Shown in pieces: positions 1,756-11,161 of a stretch of DNA of 64,000 bases. Numbering within the stretch: the first letter of the stretch is position 1; every line of letters starts with the position of its first letter. Location: the NCBI GenBank assembly GCA_945900965.1, contig CAMDKM010000007.1, positions 17,732 through 81,731 of the forward strand, read 5' to 3'. The stretch is from Bordetella parapertussis (GTDB lineage: Bacteria > Pseudomonadota > Gammaproteobacteria > Burkholderiales > JACQAP01). Both the position numbers and the translations under genes were made by a program. The notes beneath the pieces are model-generated. The model saw nothing but the letters and a program-made list of their open reading frames with translations, was not told where the DNA came from and ran no database searches.

Positions 1756-3267
1756 TCAAGGGCTTTCAGGATTTGGCCCCGGCTCGATCCAGGCCCCCGC
1801 CCGTGTCACCGCTTTTTTCCAACGGGCGCGTCTCGTCGCACGCTCGTCCGCGGGGATTTCCGGCTCGAACCGACGTTCGAGTCGCCACTGGGCGGCCAAG
1901 GCATCGGCATTTTCCCAGACCCCTGTCGCCAGTCCCGCCAGATAGGCCGCACCCAGCGCGGTGGTTTCGGTGATCTTGGGTCGCAGCACGCTAACGCCCA
2001 ACAGGTCGGCTTGAATCTGCATCAGCAGATCGTTGCGCGCGGCACCGCCATCGACCCGGAGTTCGGACACCTGCGTGCCGGAATCCGCGCACATGGCTTC
2101 GAGCAGGTCGGCACTTTGGTGCGCAATGGCTTCCAGGGCCGCACGCGCGATATGCGCCGCGCGGGTGCCACGCGACAGGCCTACCAGCACTCCACGGGCA
2201 TGGGGGTCCCAGTAAGGTGCGCCCAGCCCGGCAAACGCGGGGACCATATACACGTCCCCGGTATCCGGCACCAAACGGGCAAGAGGCTCGACTTCTGCCG
2301 ATGCGCGGATGATGCCCAGACCATCCCGCAACCACTGCACCGCCGCCCCGCCGATAAAGACCCCGCCTTCCAGCGCGTAATCGACCCGATTGCCGATCCG
2401 GGAGGCCACGGTGGTCAGCAGGCGATGCCGGGAGACCGAGGGACGCTCGGCCGTATGCATGAGCATGAAACAACCTGTGCCATAGGTATTTTTCACCATG
2501 CCGGCGTGGGTGCACTGCTGCCCGAATAACGCGGCCTGTTGATCGCCCGCCACACCGGCGATCGGCACGGGCCGGCCGAAGTGTGCGGCATCGGTTTCGG
2601 CAATCCAGCCGCTGGACGGCACAACGCCGGGCAACATCGCACGCGGCACACGCAACAAATGCAGCAGATCGTCATCCCACTCGCCGCGATGAATGTTGTA
2701 CATCAGGGTGCGCGAGGCGTTCGTGGCATCGGTAACATGGATGCGCCCGTTGGTCAGTTTCCAGATCAGCCACGAGTCAACCGTGCCGAAGGCAATTTCT
2801 CCGCGCTGTGCCCGCGCGCGCAATGTCTCGTCCTGGTCGAGCAACCAGCACAATTTGGTGCCGGAGAAATACGCGTCGAGCAATAAGCCAGTGCGTTCGG
2901 TAAACAAGGCTTCAACGCCCCGGCTCTTGAGTTGCTCGCAAATTCCCGCACTGCGCCGATCCTGCCAGACGATGGCATTGGTCAATGGTCTTCCGGTCGC
3001 GCGCTCCCAGATCACGGTGGTTTCGCGCTGATTGGTTATGCCCAGCGCGGCCACGTCGTCGGCATGTAATCCCGCCTTGGACAACGCGCTGCGCGCGGTT
3101 GCGATCTGGCTGGACCAGATCTCCTCCGGATCGTGCTCGACCCAGCCGGACCGGGGAAATATCTGGCGAAATTCCTGTTGCGCCATCGCGAGCACGCTGC
3201 CCGCCTCGTCGAACACGATGGCGCGCGAACTGGTGGTTCCCTGATCCAATGCAAGAATGGCCGGCAT
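1756..3267 (-). CDS. glpK: glycerol kinase
   Basis: [55 protein letters not shown] motifs. Confidence 0.95.
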
Positions 3268-3340
3268 GTTGATTCCTGTTTAAAGGGCTTGCCTTGCCAC
3301 ATGATATCCTCGCGGCACTCGCGCGCAAATCTTCCCGAAT

Positions 3341-4348
3341 ATGAGCACCAATGTTTTTATCGCCGCCCTGGTCCGCATGGGATTGCTGCAAGACGGCGAA
3401 TCCCCGTGCATGACGCCGCTGGCGGGCGGCGTGTCCTCGGATATCGTGCGTGTCGATCTCCACGACAGAACGCTCTGCCTCAAACGGGCGTTGCCCAAAC
3501 TCAAAGTCAAAGCCGACTGGCACGCGCCGGTGGATCGCAATCGTTTCGAAAAAGAATGGTTGCGGGTGGCCGAGCGTATTGTTCCCGAGGCAGTTCCAAG
3601 GGTGCTGGGCGAAGATGCCGAGTCTGGGCTGTTCGCCATGGAATATCTGCCACCCGCCGAGTACCCGGTCTGGAAGGAACAACTGCGAGATGGACACATA
3701 TTGCCAGCCACCGCGGCGGCAGTCGGCCTTCGCGTGAGCGCGATTCATGAGGCCACGGCAGGCCGCCCGGAAATCGCCATCAGCTTTGCCACCGACCCTA
3801 TCTTTTTTCCGATTCGACTCGAGCCCTACCTCCTGGCCACTGCGCAGAAGAACCCGGACTGTGCAGCACGCCTGGAAAGTCTGGTCCGAATCACCAGCGC
3901 CTGTAAAAAAGCGCTGGTGCATGGCGATATCAGTCCCAAGAATATTCTGGTCGGGCCTCGTGGCCCGGTATTCCTCGACGCCGAATGCGCCTGGTACGGC
4001 GACCCGGCCTTCGATCTGGCGTTTTGCCTGAATCACCTGCTGCTTAAATGCGCCTGGCGCCCACGGTGGCAAGGCGCGTATCTGGAAAGTTTTGACGCCC
4101 TGGCCGGCAGTTATCTGGCAGCGGTGAGTTGGGAATCGAAGAACGATATCGAAGCGCGCGCCGCCCATTTGTTGCCTGGTTTGCTGCTGGGGCGAATCGA
4201 TGGACGATCGCCCGTGGAATATCTTACCGACGAGCACGACCGCGAGCGCGTGCGTCAAGTGGCACGCGTGCTCCTGCTCGATCCGGTTGCCACGCTGAAG
4301 CAAGTTCGCGATGCCTGGATCACGCTTTATCCTAGAAACGATGATTGA
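3341..4348 (+). CDS. APH/choline-kinase-fold phosphotransferase, 5-methylthioribose kinase-like
   Basis: PLAGGVSSDI loop, LVHGDISPKNILV catalytic motif, FLDAECAWYGDPAFD. Confidence 0.85.
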   Translation: MSTNVFIAALVRMGLLQDGESPCMTPLAGGVSSDIVRVDLHDRTLCLKRALPKLKVKADWHAPVDRNRFEKEWLRVAERIVPEAVPRVLGEDAESGLFAMEYLPPAEYPVWKEQLRDGHILPATAAAVGLRVSAIHEATAGRPEIAISFATDPIFFPIRLEPYLLATAQKNPDCAARLESLVRITSACKKALVHGDISPKNILVGPRGPVFLDAECAWYGDPAFDLAFCLNHLLLKCAWRPRWQGAYLESFDALAGSYLAAVSWESKNDIEARAAHLLPGLLLGRIDGRSPVEYLTDEHDRERVRQVARVLLLDPVATLKQVRDAWITLYPRNDD

Positions 4349-4500
4349 ATCACGGAGGCCACGGTGTACACGGAGAAAATCCTAGAACTTATACTGTTCT
4401 GGCCAATCACCCAGGCGGCGAACGTACAAAGCAAACTATCGCATTTGTTCTGCCCCGTGGTCTCCGTGTTCTCCGTGATTCAACTGCTTTTTTAAGGTTC
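4329..4500. repeat. miniature inverted-repeat element with CACGGAG-type 9-mer arms
   Basis: Perfect 13-bp IR TTGAATCACGGAG (4345-4357) / CTCCGTGATTCAA (4471-4483) with repeated CACGG/CCGTG units; ends directly at the enolase ATG. Confidence 0.8.
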
Positions 4501-5784
4501 ATGACAGATACCACGATCCAAAAAGTGCATGCCCGCCGGGTATGGGATTCGCGAGGCAGGCCCACTATCGAAGTCGATGTTCGGTTAACCGGCGGAGCGA
4601 TGGGACGGGCGATCGCACCGGCCGGGGCCTCGCGCGGCTCTCACGAAGCAGTCGATTTGCGCGACGGCGGCGAGGCGATGGGCGGCATGGATGTGTTGCG
4701 GGCTGTCGCCAACGTTAATGGCGAGATCGCCAATCTGCTGAGCGGACACGACTCCCTGGATCAAAGCGGCATCGACCGCGATTTGATCGCGCTCGATGGC
4801 ACGACCAACAAATCCCGGCTGGGGGGCAATGCCATGATCGCCACATCAATGGCGGTATTGCATGCCGCGGCCGCTGCGCATCACCAGCCCCTTTATGCCT
4901 GGCTTGCCCAGGGAAAATCCGTTCGCCTTCCACTCCCGGAGATCCAGATTTTTGGCGGCGGTGCGCACGCCGGACGACGCGTCGATATCCAGGATTTCAT
5001 GGTCATGGCTCTCAGTGCGCGCAGCTTCCAGGAAGCGCTGCTCATGACAGCCAATGTCTATCGTGCGGCCGGCGCCCTGATGCAGGAAGCCGGCAAACTG
5101 CAAGGGGTTGCCGACGAGGGCGGCTACTGGCCGGTATTCGCGTCCAACGAGGAGGCTTTGACGATGCTGATACGGGCCATCGAACGGGCAGGCTACCAGC
5201 CTGGTGCGGACGTCGCAATTTCCCTCGATATTGCGGCCTCCGAATTCGGCCGCAATGGCCGCTACTGGCTGGGGCTGGATAAGCGCGAGATGGACAGCGA
5301 TGGCCTGTGCGAGCTGCTGCTGGGCTGGCTTGCGCGTTTTCCGATCGTGTCGATCGAAGATCCGCTGGCGGAAGACGATACTCAGGGCATGCAACGATTC
5401 ACCGCGGCGGCGGGTCGGCGGGTGCAGATCATCGGGGATGATTACCTGGTCACCAACGCCGCGCGGGTAAGCGCCGCCGTCGAGCAGGGTGCCTGCAACG
5501 CAGTGCTGATCAAACCGAACCAGGCCGGCACGGTGACGGAAACCAAGGCCGCGTTGGATGCCGGTCAGCGCGCGGGCTGGGGCACCATTGTCTCGGCTCG
5601 CAGCGGCGAGACGGAAGATGTCACTATTGCACACCTCGCGATGGGCTGGAATGCCGGCCAACTCAAGGTAGGATCGTTCTCGCGCTCCGAGCGCATGGCA
5701 AAATGGAACGAGGTACTTCGCATCGAAGAAGCATCGGGGGCCGACGCCCGTTACGCGGGACGCAGCGTGCTTCCAGCACCATAA
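4501..5784 (+). CDS. eno: enolase-family protein (divergent paralogue)
   Basis: WDSRGRPTIEV, GASRG, DEGG, SIEDP, GDD, LIKPNQ, SARSGETED, RSERMAKWN; start at ATG 4501. Confidence 0.9.
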   Translation: MTDTTIQKVHARRVWDSRGRPTIEVDVRLTGGAMGRAIAPAGASRGSHEAVDLRDGGEAMGGMDVLRAVANVNGEIANLLSGHDSLDQSGIDRDLIALDGTTNKSRLGGNAMIATSMAVLHAAAAAHHQPLYAWLAQGKSVRLPLPEIQIFGGGAHAGRRVDIQDFMVMALSARSFQEALLMTANVYRAAGALMQEAGKLQGVADEGGYWPVFASNEEALTMLIRAIERAGYQPGADVAISLDIAASEFGRNGRYWLGLDKREMDSDGLCELLLGWLARFPIVSIEDPLAEDDTQGMQRFTAAAGRRVQIIGDDYLVTNAARVSAAVEQGACNAVLIKPNQAGTVTETKAALDAGQRAGWGTIVSARSGETEDVTIAHLAMGWNAGQLKVGSFSRSERMAKWNEVLRIEEASGADARYAGRSVLPAP

Positions 5785-5804
5785 CCACACTCGCGGCACA
5801 AATA

Positions 5805-6242
5805 ATGAGCAGCAGACCCGTACCCGAATCGCGTGAGCATTTTCGCCACTTCCAGATCATCCCGACCCGCTGGATGGACAACGATGTCTACGGGCATGTG
5901 AACAACGTAATTTATTACAGCTACTTCGACACCGTGGTGAACCAATACCTGATCGAACGCGGAGTGTTGGAAATCGACACCAGTCCGGTGATCGGTTTGG
6001 TGGTGGAAACCCAATGCCATTATTTTGCCCCGATCACCTTCCCCGATGTAGTCCATGCCGGGTTGCGGGTGACACGTTTGGGCAATAGCAGCGTGCGCTA
6101 CGAAATTGGACTGTTCACGAACCAGGAGCCGACCCCCTCGGCACAAGGGCATTTCGTTCACGTCTACGTCGATCGCGCCTCGCGCCGCTCAACCGCCCTG
6201 CCTGCTACTCTGCGCGCGGCTTTAGAAAAGCTGGTCGTCTAA
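5805..6242 (+). CDS. acyl-CoA thioesterase (4HBT/YbgC family)
   Basis: TRWMDNDVYGHVNNVIYYSYFD hot-dog fold motif. Confidence 0.9.
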   Translation: MSSRPVPESREHFRHFQIIPTRWMDNDVYGHVNNVIYYSYFDTVVNQYLIERGVLEIDTSPVIGLVVETQCHYFAPITFPDVVHAGLRVTRLGNSSVRYEIGLFTNQEPTPSAQGHFVHVYVDRASRRSTALPATLRAALEKLVV

Positions 6243-6244
6243 AG

Positions 6245-6440
6245 AAAATCTTGACGCAAAGGTCGCAAAGAACGCCAAGAAACCCAAGGAAAAGAAACAA
6301 ATTCGAGACAGGGGGCTTGGTGCCTCTTGCAAACGCGTAGCCCCGATGGACGCTTCGAGGAACATCTCTCTCGTTTTTCTTTGCGTTCTTTGCGTTCTTT
6401 GCGTTCTTTGCGAACTTTGCGCCTTTGCGTCGAGCTTTTG
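6245..6440. repeat. CGCAAAG/CTTTGCG inverted-arm element, copy 1
   Basis: Left arm of CGCAAAG units (6253-6290); right arm CTTTGCGTT x3, CTTTGCGAA, CTTTGCGC, CTTTGCGTCGAG (6379-6434). Confidence 0.85.
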
Positions 6441-6450
6441 TTTTCTGACC

Positions 6451-6527
6451 CCAGATCCTCGAATATGTGTCCGTAGCGCGCAACACCAACCGCGCCGCCT
6501 AAGGAATTACGTACCAGTTCAAGTACG
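6451..6527 (-). pseudogene. displaced second copy of the 3' end of the adjacent GNAT gene
   Basis: Translates VLELVRNSLGGAVGVARYGHIFEDL versus the gene end ALELVPGAFAGAAGVVRYGHEFEDL; gapless, 52/70 nt identical by manual alignment. Confidence 0.8.
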
Positions 6528-6533
6528 AAAAGG

Positions 6534-6710
6534 AAAATCTCGACGCAAAGGCGCAAAGACGCAAAGAAATCCAATGCAAAACAGGAAAGGAATCCATGTG
6601 TAAAACGATAGTCGCCATAGTGTTTAGGTGGCTTCTGACAAGGCGTGGCGAGACGTTATTCTTATCTCTTGTTTTTCTTCGCGTCTTTGCGCCTTTGCGT
6701 CGAGCTTTTG
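6534..6710. repeat. CGCAAAG/CTTTGCG inverted-arm element, copy 2
   Basis: CTCGACGCAAAGGCGCAAAGACGC / GCGTCTTTGCGCCTTTGCGTCGAG inverted arms; the right end GCGCCTTTGCGTCGAGCTTTTG is identical to that of copy 1. Confidence 0.85.
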
Positions 6711-7263: not shown

Positions 7264-8022
7264 TCAGCCACCCGGCCCGCCCCCGTTGACGAACATGATC
7301 TGGCCGCTCATGTAACTTGCCGCATCGGACACCAGAAACGCCACGGCCTCGGCAATCTCCTCGGGCGTGCCCTTGCGTCCCAGGGGCACGGATCGAATAA
7401 AGGCGTCGGCCTTTTCTTCCCCGATTTTCGCCAGCGATTCGTGGAGCATGTCGGTGGCAATCGGTCCCGGTCCCACGGCATTCACCCGGATGCCGTATCT
7501 GCCCTCTTCCTTGGACAGGATTTTTGTCATGGCTTCCAGACCGATTTTTGAAACCGTGTAAACACCGGCTCCAGCCGGAAAGCGGTTGGTCACGTTCGAT
7601 GACAAATTGACGATGTTGCCGGTGCGGCGCTGGCGCATGTGCGGCAGCACGGCCTGGATCAGATGAAATGGCCCGCTCAGATTGACCCGCAGCACATGAT
7701 CCCAGTCCTGCGCCGAGGTATCGGCCAGCATGACACCCGGAAGATGAACACCGGCATTGTTGACCAGCACGTCAATGCGTCCGAATTGCGCCAACGCTGC
7801 CTGCACCAGCGATCGCGCCGAGTCGCCATCGGCCGCATCCGCGCAGATAGCCTGGGCCTCGCCACCGGCTTTTCGCACCGCGTCTTCGACTTGCACCGCC
7901 GCCTGACGGCCGCGCAGATAAGTGAACAACACCTGGTGTCCGCGCTGCGCGAGCATCATCACAACGGCCCTGCCAATTCCGCGTGACCCGCCCGTGACGA
8001 TGGCAACCGGCTTATTTGTCAT
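7264..8022 (-). CDS. SDR family oxidoreductase (FabG-like)
   Basis: TGGSRGIG, NNAG, YTVSK. Confidence 0.9.
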   Translation of the reverse strand: MTNKPVAIVTGGSRGIGRAVVMMLAQRGHQVLFTYLRGRQAAVQVEDAVRKAGGEAQAICADAADGDSARSLVQAALAQFGRIDVLVNNAGVHLPGVMLADTSAQDWDHVLRVNLSGPFHLIQAVLPHMRQRRTGNIVNLSSNVTNRFPAGAGVYTVSKIGLEAMTKILSKEEGRYGIRVNAVGPGPIATDMLHESLAKIGEEKADAFIRSVPLGRKGTPEEIAEAVAFLVSDAASYMSGQIMFVNGGGPGG

Positions 8023-8025
8023 GCC

Positions 8026-9036
8026 TCAACTCCTGCGTGGCAGACGTCCATTCAAGGGATATTGCGGATCGTTGAATCCCGGCGTGGAGGGATGGCCAGC
8101 CGCCACCAGGGAATCGACCAGCGCCTCGCCGCGCGGGTCGAATTCGTGTTCGAGCGCCTTGAGGTAATCCTGCCACTGCTCCAGCGTGCGCGGACCGCCG
8201 ATGACACTGGTCACGATCGCGTTGTTGAGCACCCAGTTGATGGCGAAGTGTCCGGGGTCCATGCCTTTCTTCTGCGCAAACGTTTTTATCTTTTGCACAA
8301 TCGCCAGCGATTCCTTGCGAAACTCGGTCTCCATCATTCGCTTGTCCGCGCGCCCGGCGCGGGTTCCCTCCGGTGGCGCAACGCCCGGCTGATATTTGGC
8401 CGTCAGGACACCTCTGGCCAGAGGACTGTAAGGCACAACCCCAATGCCATAGTGCCGGCAGGCGGGCAGGATTTCGACTTCCGGCTGGCGGTTCATGGCG
8501 TTGTAGTACGGCTGACAGACAACAGGCAAGGCGACGTTGTGCTCGCGGCAAAGCCGAACCACTTCGGCGATGCGCCATGCGCGAAAATTGGACAACCCGA
8601 AGTAGCGGATTTTCCCCGAGCGCGTCAGATCATCCATGGTTCGCACCATCTCTTCGAGCGGGGCATCCTCGAAATCCCGGTGCAAATAATAAATATCGAT
8701 GTAATCGGTCGCCATGCGCCGCAAGCTGTCGTCGCACGCCTGCATCAGCCAACGACGGCCCAGGCCCGAGCGGTTGGGTCCTTCGCCCATGCGGTTGCCA
8801 CCCTTGGTCGCCAACACCCAGTGCTGGCGGGCTCTGGCAATGAGCTTGCCGGTAAGGCGCTCCGACTCGCCCTTGGCATACTGGTCGGCAGTATCGATGA
8901 AGTTCACGCCGGCGTCCTGGGCCGCGCCGACGATACGCGAGGATTCCGTTTCGTCCGTGCGATCACCGAACATCATGGTGCCCAGGCACAACACCGAAAC
9001 TTCCACGCCGCTGTTGCCCAACTTTCTGTATTCCAT
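8026..9036 (-). CDS. aldo/keto reductase
   Basis: MEYRKLGNSG, LGTMMFG, DTADQY, ATK, DIYYLH, YSPLARG; start at ATG 9036. Confidence 0.92.
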   Translation of the reverse strand: MEYRKLGNSGVEVSVLCLGTMMFGDRTDETESSRIVGAAQDAGVNFIDTADQYAKGESERLTGKLIARARQHWVLATKGGNRMGEGPNRSGLGRRWLMQACDDSLRRMATDYIDIYYLHRDFEDAPLEEMVRTMDDLTRSGKIRYFGLSNFRAWRIAEVVRLCREHNVALPVVCQPYYNAMNRQPEVEILPACRHYGIGVVPYSPLARGVLTAKYQPGVAPPEGTRAGRADKRMMETEFRKESLAIVQKIKTFAQKKGMDPGHFAINWVLNNAIVTSVIGGPRTLEQWQDYLKALEHEFDPRGEALVDSLVAAGHPSTPGFNDPQYPLNGRLPRRS

Positions 9037-9166
9037 CACTCCTCCGGTATTTCGAGCGGATTTTGGGCTCGCATGATGCCGTATCGAGGGCATTACATGC
9101 AAACGCGCTTGAAGGGACGCCAACCAGGGTGCTATAAACGGTGTTTTCCGATCTGGTGCACAGCCC

Positions 9167-10174
9167 ATGGCCCGAACTATACCCACCACAATGCGTGCGA
9201 TCGACATCAGCGCACCGGGTGCGCCCGAGGTATTGCGTCCCACTCAAAGACCGGTACCGCAGCCGGCCGCGGGCGAAGTGCTGATTCAGGTCGCGTATGC
9301 CGGTGTCAACCGTCCGGATGTCCTGCAGCGCAAAGGGGGCTATCCCCCGCCTCCCGGGGCGTCGGATATTCCTGGATTGGAAATCGCCGGTACGGTCGTA
9401 TCGACCGGCGTCAACACAGGAGAATGGACGGTCGGTTCGCAGGTATGTGCGCTGGTGACCGGAGGAGGTTATGCGCAATACGTCACCGCGCCGGAGGTTC
9501 AGTGTCTGCCGGTGCCCAAAGGCTTGTCGTTGGAAGAAGCGGCAGGATTGCCCGAAACTTTTTTCACGGTCTGGGTGAACGTGTTCTTGCGTGGTGGATT
9601 AAAAGCCGGCGAAAGCTTGTTGGTGCAGGGTGGATCGAGCGGCATCGGCGTTACCGCCATCCAGATGGCGCGCGCGTTTGGCAATACCGTGTATGCCACC
9701 GCGGGCTCACCTGAAAAATGCGCGGAGTGCGAGAGACTTGGCGCAGCGCGAGCCATCAACTACCGCACCGAAGATTTTGCGGCGGTGATCAAGGACATCA
9801 CCAAGGGCCGCGGTGTGGATGTCATACTTGATATGGTTGGGGGCGACTACGTTCCGCGCGAATTGTCCTGTCTGGCCGACGATGGCCGGCTATCGCTCAT
9901 CGCCTTTCTCGGCGGCACTCGCGCAACGCTGGAAATGACCGATATTCTGCGTCGCAGACTGACCATCACCGGCTCGACCTTGCGTCCGCGTCCGGTTGAA
10001 GTCAAGGCCGCCATCGCCCGCGACTTGCGAAACAAGGTTTGGCCGCTGATTGAAGCCGGAAAAATCAGACCGGTGGTTTACAAAACTTTCGAACTGGATG
10101 CTGCTTCGCAGGCGCATGCGCTGATGGAATCCAGTACACACGTAGGAAAAATCATACTGTCGGTCGCGGGCTAG
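9167..10174 (+). CDS. NAD(P)H-quinone oxidoreductase (PIG3/zeta-crystallin family)
   Basis: GVNRPDVLQRKG, PGLEIAG, GGSSGIG, GSTLRPR, HVGKIIL. Confidence 0.92.
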   Translation: MARTIPTTMRAIDISAPGAPEVLRPTQRPVPQPAAGEVLIQVAYAGVNRPDVLQRKGGYPPPPGASDIPGLEIAGTVVSTGVNTGEWTVGSQVCALVTGGGYAQYVTAPEVQCLPVPKGLSLEEAAGLPETFFTVWVNVFLRGGLKAGESLLVQGGSSGIGVTAIQMARAFGNTVYATAGSPEKCAECERLGAARAINYRTEDFAAVIKDITKGRGVDVILDMVGGDYVPRELSCLADDGRLSLIAFLGGTRATLEMTDILRRRLTITGSTLRPRPVEVKAAIARDLRNKVWPLIEAGKIRPVVYKTFELDAASQAHALMESSTHVGKIILSVAG

Positions 10175-10234
10175 CCGGCAAACTCGACTCAGCCACGGCG
10201 CTGGCGGGAACGGGCTTCGCCTGCCGGCGGACTT

Positions 10235-11161
10235 CTAGTCGATGGCGGGAGGTTCGCGTCTGAGCATGGACATATCGTGCTGTGCGGCGACCGTCGCGGC
10301 GTATTGCACGTTTTTGTCGATTTCCTCGATGTACAGATTCTGCCCGCCGAAGTGCTTGTCGGCATATCCGTAGGCACTGCCCAAATCATCGTTCAGACGC
10401 ACCGTTGCCGTTCGGTAAAAAGTCGGGGTCCTGACCACCAGGTCTTCCGCGGACTTGAACATGACGCCGGCCCGTTTGTCGGATTCATCGCGTGCGGCGA
10501 GGCCGCCTTCGACAAATTCGGGATAGAGTCGATCGCGGCATTTTTCGAGATAACAGCGATCCGCCATCTGGGCAATGATATCTGCCGTGCCCAGCATGTT
10601 GCCGATCAGCCGGAAAGTTATGTTCGGCACGTCGATCTTGGCGATCGATTTTTCGTAGCCGGTGAAGTGGATGATTTTTGCCGCCACCGGCGCAAGCTCT
10701 GCCATGCCTATGCGATTCATGTAGTCTTCAAGAAATTTTGCCCCGCGCGACACATGGGTAAGCGTGTACTCCGCCCCGTTCTTGTGACGCGTATCGTTGA
10801 CCTTGCGCAGATACCCGATATCGTGAAACAGAGCCGTTACCACCCCGAAGCGAAAAATTCGGGCACCCAGCGACTGACGGGAACGGTTGGTGCGCTCATA
10901 ACCGTCCATCAGTCTGGCCATGGCCAAAGTGACATCAAGGCAGTGTTGCAAATTGTGATAACTGGTATCGCAGGCACGGTAGCCTGGAAAGTCGCCGCTC
11001 TGCAGTCGACTGAGGTCGCGAAAGCCGCGATTCAGTACATGGGTCGATGCGTCCGGATAAAGCTCCAGATATATGCGGTTGACTTCTTCATTGACCGACA
11101 CCGGATCGGTTGTGTTGATCAGGTTGGTCACATCGAAATCGTTGCGGCGAAAGGTGTTCAT
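10235..11161 (-). CDS. HD-domain metal-dependent phosphohydrolase
   Basis: YHNLQH, LFHDIGY, HVSRG, TADII motifs. Confidence 0.8.
   Translation of the reverse strand: MNTFRRNDFDVTNLINTTDPVSVNEEVNRIYLELYPDASTHVLNRGFRDLSRLQSGDFPGYRACDTSYHNLQHCLDVTLAMARLMDGYERTNRSRQSLGARIFRFGVVTALFHDIGYLRKVNDTRHKNGAEYTLTHVSRGAKFLEDYMNRIGMAELAPVAAKIIHFTGYEKSIAKIDVPNITFRLIGNMLGTADIIAQMADRCYLEKCRDRLYPEFVEGGLAARDESDKRAGVMFKSAEDLVVRTPTFYRTATVRLNDDLGSAYGYADKHFGGQNLYIEEIDKNVQYAATVAAQHDMSMLRREPPAID

Follow-up and report, generated by a model that had tools for sequence, protein, structure and literature searches.

The window analysed here is a 64,000-nucleotide stretch of contig CAMDKM010000007.1 from a genome deposited as Bordetella parapertussis (GCA_945900965.1; 3.88 Mb in 103 contigs, 96.8% complete). 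Close to its start, a small-molecule kinase with the fold shared by aminoglycoside phosphotransferases (APH) and MtnK is followed on the same strand by a variant of the glycolytic enzyme enolase, with glycerol kinase (glpK) divergent from both (Table 1). The databases list the two proteins as 'aminoglycoside phosphotransferase family protein' and 'phosphopyruvate hydratase'. Judged from sequence comparison, the kinase and the variant enolase are a real, widespread and probably selected enzyme pair that is annotated as plain enolase. The observations behind this view are the pairing itself, gene fusions, a conserved catalytic core and altered residues on the C3 side of the active site. A preliminary description of the locus had quoted the enolase motifs and substitutions, all of which are in the translation, and had correctly placed an APH/MtnK-fold kinase before the enolase (PF01636, and MtnK among the Foldseek matches) and a 73-bp divergent gap between kinase and glpK.

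Table 1. Features of the kinase and enolase region (positions are those of the window)
Feature	Position	Strand	Details
glpK glycerol kinase	1756-3267	-	503 aa; TIGR01311 707 bits vs cut-off 590; divergent neighbour, outside the conserved module
Divergent intergenic region glpK/kinase	3268-3340	.	73 bp
APH/MtnK-fold small-molecule kinase	3341-4348	+	335 aa; PF01636 65.6 bits; first gene of the conserved pair
Dispersed-repeat copy, MITE- or REP-like	4345-4500	.	between kinase and enolase; source of a false N-terminal extension
Variant enolase, Asp/Ala type	4501-5784	+	427 aa; TIGR01060 488 bits; second gene of the conserved pair
YbgC/4HBT-type hotdog thioesterase	5805-6242	+	PF13279 60 bits, PF03061 52 bits; 21 nt past the enolase stop; lineage-specific

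The variant enolase falls in the same two-domain fold family as the glycolytic enolases (EC 4.2.1.11; PF03952 and PF00113), with which it shares 47-50% identity. It scores 487.9 bits against TIGR01060, above the cut-off of 300, and its best match in the PDB is 4yws (406 bits). It is not an MR/MLE-type dehydratase, with 35.9 bits for PF13378 against 304 bits for Enolase_C. The plus-strand translation contains the motifs SLDIAASEF, SIEDPLAEDD, IIGDDYLV, VLIKPNQAGT, DIQDFMVMA, IVSARSGETED, PLPEIQIFGGGAHA and GVADEGGYWPVF; at the equivalent sites the canonical enolase of the same genome reads PMMNVINGGAHA, LQEF, GDEGGFAP, SHRSGETED and IKTGS. When the window sequence was aligned with those of 73 related loci, four changes were found in all 74 sequences, namely QEF to QDF, SHRS to SARS, GDEGG to ADEGG and FAP to YWP, the last including the replacement of Ala by Trp after DEGGx. 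Equally invariant (74/74) are the replacement of Asn by Gln and Asn by Gly in PMMNxxNGG, and of Thr by Val in KTG, which becomes KVG. As they are invariant throughout the clade, whose members share 58-80% identity across phyla, the substitutions are not due to chance.

The core of the active site is the same as in the glycolytic enzyme. The three metal ligands D243, E286 and D313, both lysines (K338 and K389), the general-acid Glu E206, the loop His H156, the Arg-Ser pair of the phosphate site (R367/S368) and S44 are kept in 74/74 sequences, which argues that proton abstraction, enolate stabilisation and the 2-phosphate site are retained. Three of the altered positions, the Glu-to-Asp and His-to-Ala changes and the Gly-to-Ala change before DEGG, lie together on the leaving-group (C3) side. 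The Glu of QEF corresponds to E168 of yeast enolase, and the His of SHRS to yeast H373, a residue whose role is described in the yeast literature. All 80 canonical representatives in our survey carry this Glu and this His; the variant has Asp and Ala at these two sites in every one of the 74 sequences. For the Mycobacterium tuberculosis enolase, one study assigns the role of base to Lys335 and removal of the hydroxyl to Glu204, with Glu163 (the QEF Glu) cooperating via water, and reports the mutants E163A, E204A and K335A as non-functional (PMC10619443). An invariant Arg in the His loop (R160) was considered as an extra anion site and rejected, as it failed a filter of at least 85% presence in the window type and at most 10% in canonical enolases. 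The model of the variant enolase computed with AlphaFold2 (AF2) from the single sequence, with no alignment used, had a pLDDT of 34.

Two proteins of the genome match TIGR01060, one at 685.5 bits on contig C35 and the other, at 487.9 bits, in the window. The preliminary description had suggested looking for a second, canonical eno, and the C35 gene is that copy. It is flanked by kdsA (NF003543, 439 bits) and ftsB (NF002058, 121.5 bits), and the 3' end of pyrG precedes this group. Because the canonical gene occupies the pyrG-kdsA-eno-ftsB context, the window enolase is a paralogue outside the housekeeping context, as had been proposed. The two forms coexist in 11/11 genomes tested, that is, the own genome and ten other carriers, each of the ten having two TIGR01060 matches, the stronger at 550-694 bits and the weaker at 452-497 bits.

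The phylogeny separates the two forms further. Among 1.84 billion representatives searched there were 23,771 enolase matches. The tree set combined the best 150 of these (50%-identity representatives) with nine sequences from the loci, the window enolase and the canonical enolase of the same genome; 146 near-full-length sequences were kept and placed with FastTree. By their signatures, 80 are canonical (Glu/His), 21 are of the window type (Asp/Ala/Trp), 27 are of a second Asp/Ala type without the Trp and 18 are irregular, so that the Asp/Ala branch makes up 48 of the 146. The preliminary description had asked whether QDF/SARS sequences form a clade that stays next to the kinase. Indeed, all 21 window-type enolases lie in a clade of 32 with zero canonical members (support 0.99), and this clade adjoins the kinase or is fused with it. 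All 80 canonical enolases fall in a clade of 84, together with one Asp/Ala sequence and three irregular ones, the support of that node being only 0.098. The Asp/Ala sequence inside the canonical clade (P0335) may reflect convergence or misplacement. The window type and the second Asp/Ala type share the Glu-to-Asp change (100% and 100%), the His-to-Ala change (90% and 89%) and the Gly-to-Ala change before DEGG (95% and 67%). Comparison with the canonical representatives found no new invariant charged residue common to both subfamilies.

Scanning one genome per species, we found relatives of the kinase in at least 584 species genomes, and the best 80 loci were inspected. For the clustering of neighbouring open reading frames (ORFs), these were taken from a caller filtered by GC content at third codon positions (GC3) that is still imperfect, so the neighbour counts from that clustering are lower bounds. 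An Asp/Ala enolase lies just downstream of the kinase, on the same strand, in 76 of the 80 loci and in 76 of the 77 that are informative. Three of the four loci without it (L020, L028 and L081) reach a contig end within about 200 nt of the kinase; the sole true exception is L021, where no enolase is found within 8 kb downstream of the kinase at 8001-8903. One further locus, L082, has an enolase that matches in two pieces (8996-9322 and 9372-10241), possibly through a frameshift, an insertion or an assembly error. According to their record titles, the kinase relatives come from Burkholderiales and other Betaproteobacteria, Rhodospirillales, Hyphomicrobiales, Gammaproteobacteria and Acidobacteriota, the last with ten Vicinamibacterales/Vicinamibacteraceae and one labelled Acidobacteria.

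A control on metagenomes started from the other partner, with an enolase of the second, distant Asp/Ala type as the query. It returned 80 loci, of which nine encode SARS and 71 SHRS. The kinase is directly upstream in 8/8 SARS loci that have upstream DNA, with 32-38% identity to the window kinase, and in 0/71 SHRS loci. As to the second subfamily itself, a member (P0250) compared with 301 Pseudomonadota genomes gave canonical-level matches only (49-55% identity), and the neighbours of the distant subfamily in L104-L112, a SET-domain gene, a malate/lactate dehydrogenase and a CoA-transferase, reflect lineage synteny only.

Fusions tie the two activities together more directly. Among 120 proteins of at least 588 aa that match the kinase, 95 carry an enolase, 94 as kinase-enolase and one as PanE-kinase-enolase, and one of the 95 is from the cultured Vibrio halioticoli. 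The fused enolases read S-A-RSGE in 82 cases and S-R-RSGE in one, the motif not being found in 12; His never occurs at this position. The remaining 25 comprise nine UxuA-kinase proteins, four with an unassigned N-terminal domain, two PanE/ApbA-kinase proteins, one D-2-hydroxyacid dehydrogenase-kinase, one FAH hydrolase/kinase fusion and eight others. The nine UxuA-kinase clusters (P0484, P0486, P0488, P0489, P0491-P0494 and P0496) have UxuA, the mannonate dehydratase, at the N-terminus (TIGR00695, 418 bits) and a kinase part that is 44-49% identical to that of the window. The unassigned domain (P0474, P0475, P0478 and P0480) is 335 aa long and matches no Pfam family at E <= 1e-5; it bears a weak likeness to PrdB of the selenoprotein-B-type reductase subunits (TIGR04483, 83 bits against a cut-off of 300). 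An SGL-lactonase fusion is also among the kinase fusions.

These data bear on a deflationary explanation, in which the paralogue is a non-catalytic, moonlighting or decaying duplicate and the kinase is functionally unrelated to it. Two catalytic-site positions that differ from those of all 80 canonical representatives would be expected of such a protein. However, identity of 58-80% across phyla with invariant catalytic residues, intact ORFs, fusion to an enolase in 95/120 long relatives and a linkage that survives rearrangements make this explanation highly improbable.

The kinase belongs to the APH family, its PF01636 score standing well clear of the cut-off of 23.2 bits; against the MtnK profile TIGR01767 it reaches 65.3 bits, with a cut-off of 275. 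Its best sequence match in the PDB is nevertheless MtnK (2olc, E = 6.6e-10), and an AF2 model from a 48-row alignment (pLDDT 93.3) finds MtnK for all of its best solved structures in Foldseek (9a5i, 2pyw and 2pun; TMq 0.78-0.84, 15-19% identity). As modelled, the kinase has an MtnK-type fold. Kinase and MtnK also have in common the HGD...N loop and the DxE motif. The HGDxxxxN loop (H194-N201, including H194, D196 and N201) is invariant in 48/48 kinases, as are D213, which binds Mg, and E215. Five arginines (R66, R159, R273, R285 and R305) are invariant in the 48 sequences. The differences from MtnK are the low identity of 15-19%, a length shorter by about 60 residues and the enolase partner; in the annotated loci, no methionine-salvage gene was seen among the neighbours. 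A prediction of the kinase/enolase complex from the two alignments scored 0.00.

Known glycerate kinases fall into three unrelated classes, I (GarK/GlxK), II (MOFRL/TtuD) and III (PRK-like), none of which has the APH fold (PMC2063504). The present kinase consists of an APH domain only. Checked by sequence, it is no member of classes I and II (PF02595 and PF05161), its only matches at E <= 0.001 being APH and, below the cut-off, the fructosamine-kinase family.

After MtnK, the Foldseek neighbours of the kinase are PsiK and LxmK, and the LxmK-type profile NF038156 scores 28.6 bits on it. LxmK and LxmY of the class V lanthipeptides (9dk1-3) likewise combine an APH-fold kinase with an elimination enzyme. 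By analogy, the kinase here might phosphorylate the beta-hydroxyl of its substrate and the enolase-like enzyme eliminate phosphate instead of water, and the residues altered in the variant are those that assist the departure of hydroxide. In LxmK/LxmY, however, the substrate is a peptide and the phosphate leaves, whereas the variant enolase keeps a site for a 2-phosphate that does not leave. E206 and the full 2-phosphate site (R367, S368, S44 and H156), kept in 74/74 sequences, predict a substrate already phosphorylated at C2, so that beta-phosphorylation would yield a doubly phosphorylated substrate and an ATP-wasting bypass. We regard such an elimination as improbable.

Genes beside the pair offer clues to its substrate. 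A D-2-hydroxyacid dehydrogenase (D2HADH), orthologous among the loci (mutual identity at least 53%), adjoins the pair in 20/80 loci and does so in three arrangements: divergent upstream, co-directional upstream and downstream of the enolase. Its nearest PDB entry is the glycerate dehydrogenase/glyoxylate reductase 2cuk, followed by phosphoglycerate dehydrogenases, and it scores under every NCBIfam cut-off. A galactarate/altronate-type dehydratase lies near the pair in 3/80 genome loci. A VOC (glyoxalase-fold) protein of 130 aa stands between kinase and enolase in four Burkholderiales loci (L005, L010, L014 and L015).

Annotated plasmids of cultured bacteria gave 33 records that matched the kinase, and ten of them were inspected. 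A second, CtBP-like D2HADH is adjacent in five of these loci. Plasmids of Rhizobium indicum and Rhizobium sp. Pop5 have the order LysR-ppc-(CtBP-like D2HADH)-kinase, with a zinc-dependent alcohol dehydrogenase (Zn-ADH), a VOC protein, the Asp/Ala enolase and a cupin 1-7 kb off; Cupriavidus necator C39 and Paraburkholderia PGU19 have the same gene set minus ppc. In these Rhizobium, Cupriavidus and Paraburkholderia clusters the VOC protein is a two-domain form of 333 aa, beside the enolase in L185 and L188. The order in Rhodococcus opacus PD630 is FAH-D2HADH-enolase-kinase-FAH, and in Paracoccus seriniphilus and Roseibium aggregatum a LacI gene stands next to kinase-enolase-FAH-SDR-sugar ABC transporter, so that FAH hydrolases adjoin the pair in all three of these genera. 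The pair is by itself in M. nodulans, in the order enolase-kinase, and Azospirillum brasilense Sp7 has kinase-enolase. The nine plasmid enolases inspected all read QD and SARS. The tenth record, an Enterobacter chuandaensis plasmid (L190, 6211-8936), holds only a distant kinase (38% identity), which heads a different operon with a U32 peptidase, an NAD(P) oxidoreductase, an aminotransferase, an iron-containing redox enzyme family protein, an M14 peptidase and an MFS transporter; divergent from it is an enolase-like 'hypothetical protein' (37% identical) in which QD is present and the SARSGE motif absent.

Other neighbours follow lineage. glpK adjoins the kinase in only 19/80 loci, all of them close Burkholderiales relatives, and five equally close relatives have parA directly upstream in its place. 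The preliminary description had raised a possible link to glycerol or polyol catabolism on account of glpK; this link is rejected as lineage-specific, and the position of glpK would be an accident of local synteny. The thioesterase is found downstream in 19/80 loci, all Burkholderiales-type, and an EamA transporter follows the enolase in 19 loci of the ORF clustering, a different set, and is missing in the window.

We propose that kinase and variant enolase form a two-step unit apart from glycolysis, converting a D-glycerate-type acid via its 2-phospho acid to phosphoenolpyruvate (PEP) or a homologue, and our confidence in this proposal is about evenly balanced. The kinase would add phosphate to the hydroxyl at C2 of a D-2,3-dihydroxy acid, with D-glycerate as the likeliest candidate. 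In the variant enolase, the conserved Lys would take the C2 proton and the C3 hydroxyl would be eliminated, giving PEP or, if the acid is larger, a close homologue. A third gene, where present, would supply the acid, either as a 2-oxoacid reductase resembling hydroxypyruvate reductase or as dehydratases and FAH hydrolases. The reductases linked or fused to the kinase are of three unrelated kinds, two D2HADH families and PanE/ApbA. PanE and D-2-hydroxyacid dehydrogenases yield D-2-hydroxy acids, so the simplest chain would start at a 2-oxo acid, which the reductase turns into the D-2-hydroxy acid, the kinase into the 2-phospho acid and the variant enolase into the enol phosphate. With hydroxypyruvate as the input, this chain becomes D-glycerate to 2-phosphoglycerate (2-PG) to PEP. 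Galactarate-type and mannonate dehydratases and FAH hydrolases act upstream of C3 fragments in sugar-acid routes and, like ppc, fit a conversion of glycerate to PEP. The idea in the preliminary description that the kinase makes a phosphorylated acid and the paralogue dehydrates it thus remains the best reading, whereas its suggestion that the acid may not be 2-PG was not supported, the contexts leaning towards glycerate to PEP. We stress that the sequence of the two steps, the position that is phosphorylated and the acid that is used are what we infer from these comparisons.

Several points weigh against the glycerate-to-PEP proposal. One concern is that the substrate is deduced from neighbours that vary with lineage: ppc is adjacent in two loci only, both on plasmids, and no orthologue of the linked reductase was found in the own genome, where the best match is 39% identical. 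Further, 5/6 genomes tested, among them the own genome (contig C2), encode a MOFRL class II glycerate kinase, whereas a PF02595 glycerate kinase occurs in 0/6, the own genome included. Since the MOFRL kinase and the canonical enolase coexist with the pair, a plain route from glycerate via 2-PG to PEP would be redundant and an enolase of its own would hardly seem needed; for the same reason, we rejected the idea that the pair stands in, as a non-orthologous substitute, for an absent glycerate kinase or enolase. That the QEF Glu and the SHRS His are lost without exception speaks for a different chemistry or substrate. In M. tuberculosis enolase, the change E163A is reported to abolish function (PMC10619443), yet Asp differs from Ala. 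The strict co-inheritance and fusion of a dedicated enolase whose altered C3 side is invariant suggest that the housekeeping enolase does not serve the kinase product. Finally, the UxuA-fused kinases may phosphorylate a 2-keto-3-deoxy acid elsewhere than at O2, which would question 2-O-phosphorylation as such.

These objections lead to the most serious alternative, in which the acid is larger or carries a substituent at C3; candidates are C4-C6 aldonates, 2,3-dihydroxybutyrate and 3-sulfo or 3-phospho analogues. The kinase would make its 2-phospho derivative, and the variant enolase would convert this to a PEP homologue, or to PEP and another leaving group. The bolder inference of the preliminary description was of this kind. 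The Glu-to-Asp and His-to-Ala changes, found in 74/74 sequences and common to both subfamilies, trim two side chains beside C3, and the window subfamily has bulky hydrophobic changes nearby (Ala to Trp and Thr to Val, each 74/74). A non-redundant role is to be expected where a canonical enolase and a MOFRL kinase coexist with the pair, and links to sugar acids are provided by the UxuA fusions, the SGL-lactonase fusion and the LacI-regulated sugar ABC operons with FAH and SDR genes. However, nothing has changed at the phosphate, carboxylate and metal sites, and the two subfamilies have gained no invariant charged residue in common. Further, ppc and the partners resembling hydroxypyruvate reductase suit C3 chemistry, and the neighbourhoods inspected show no recurrent enzyme that would take a PEP homologue further. 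We therefore consider the alternative possible but on the doubtful side. The stronger claim, that Asp/Ala enolases are not 2-phosphoglycerate enolases at all and form, with the APH-fold kinase, a system of phosphorylative dehydration that turns a larger or 3-substituted 2,3-dihydroxy acid into a new phosphoenol-2-oxoacid, is put forward still more tentatively and would be unlikely on the present evidence.

If D-glycerate is the substrate, the proposed unit would have the same net reaction as the lower glycerate pathway, in which a glycerate 2-kinase and enolase convert glycerate via 2-PG to PEP. The suppliers would also be similar, namely reduction of hydroxypyruvate or tartronate semialdehyde, and sugar-acid dehydratases. 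Unlike the known glycerate routes, which use the housekeeping enolase, the pair has a dedicated variant, fused or co-translated with the kinase. A precedent for an enolase homologue that dehydrates a modified 2-phosphoglycerate is PhpH of phosphinothricin biosynthesis, which is encoded in a secondary-metabolite cluster and is not known to be coupled to an APH kinase. From the glycolytic enolase itself, the variant is set apart by the Asp in QEF, the Ala in SHRS, the Ala before DEGG and, in the window subfamily, the Trp after DEGGx, as well as by its place outside the canonical clade and gene context, its coexistence with the canonical gene and its linkage to the kinase. Full-text searching, which does not reach most subscription journals or the supplements of preprints, turned up no study of the pair of kinase and variant enolase.

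Enolase is among the most confidently annotated enzymes, and a large sister branch carries the same label though two catalytic-site residues have changed. Should the substrate be glycerate, the kinase would represent a fourth, unrelated class of glycerate kinase, and the fused or co-translated enolase would suggest channelling to PEP that bypasses the glycolytic pool, which would be relevant to models of flux through the assimilation of glyoxylate, oxalate and sugar acids and through the serine cycle. Should it be a different one, the interest would lie in an enol-phosphate metabolite and a dehydration strategy that are both new. With a larger acid, the phosphate of the PEP homologue could be converted to ATP, and hundreds of soil and water species would possess a way round the classical sugar-acid dehydratases that is ATP-neutral and free of iron-sulfur clusters. 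As the pair is present in the tractable Cupriavidus necator, Azospirillum brasilense Sp7, Rhodococcus opacus PD630 and Paracoccus seriniphilus, these proposals are directly testable.

At the present locus the junction of the two genes deviates from that of its relatives. The enolase ORF is listed as 4345-5784 (+), opening with TTG at 4345, and the start is most likely the ATG at 4501, as judged from three features. The Pfam domain Enolase_N begins at residue 58 of the longer ORF, whose first 52 residues form a spurious N-terminal extension; the closest variant-enolase homologues have 427 aa and cover 100% of the 4501-5781 translation; and 4345-4500 is a dispersed repeat. The gene is therefore probably 4501-5784, and AAGG sits 6-9 nt 5' of the ATG. 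The repeat of about 155 nt, similar to a miniature inverted-repeat transposable element (MITE) or a repetitive extragenic palindrome (REP), matches the own genome at 61 places, of which about 30 are nearly full-length copies with 75-90% identity. It has long terminal inverted repeats and a folding energy of -59.3 kcal/mol (z = -4.85), and read depth in one DNA run was 156-190 over 4345-4500 against about 7-9 in most flanking bins. The spacer between kinase and enolase is 152 nt here, 4349-4500 being the repeat copy. The projected gap in the 76 related loci has a median of 12.5 nt and is zero or negative in 29/76, with three above 1.4 kb. Since the two genes abut or overlap in relatives, the repeat element was inserted where the two genes of the operon meet. 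Three RNA libraries gave contigs with exact matches, which lie at 3352-3597 and 3568-3790 inside the kinase and span both junctions, at 4191-4442 (3' end of the kinase into the spacer) and 4461-4816 (spacer into the enolase). They give a weak hint of read-through transcription; DNA carry-over is possible.

Scans for promoters and terminators in the region gave results at chance level, a consensus scan found no sigma-70-like site in 3268-3340, and Rfam had zero matches across 3200-6700. The DNA metagenomes that best match the sequence are from lake water, drinking water and sediment. Between its first position and glpK, the window encodes a hexapeptide-repeat protein (35-556, +) that looks gamma-carbonic-anhydrase-like by eye, a conserved protein of 84 aa (586-840, +) and an orphan ParA-type ATPase (883-1722, -; PF13614, 110 bits). 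ORF clustering indicates that the order of these three genes is kept upstream of the pair in close Burkholderiales relatives. Past the thioesterase, noncoding tandem arrays of 8- to 9-bp units occupy 6254-6281, 6377-6430, 6542-6596 and 6677-6699; the units are TTCTTTGCG and its complement ACGCAAAGA, in up to six copies, and the arrays yield long, spurious low-complexity ORFs on both strands.

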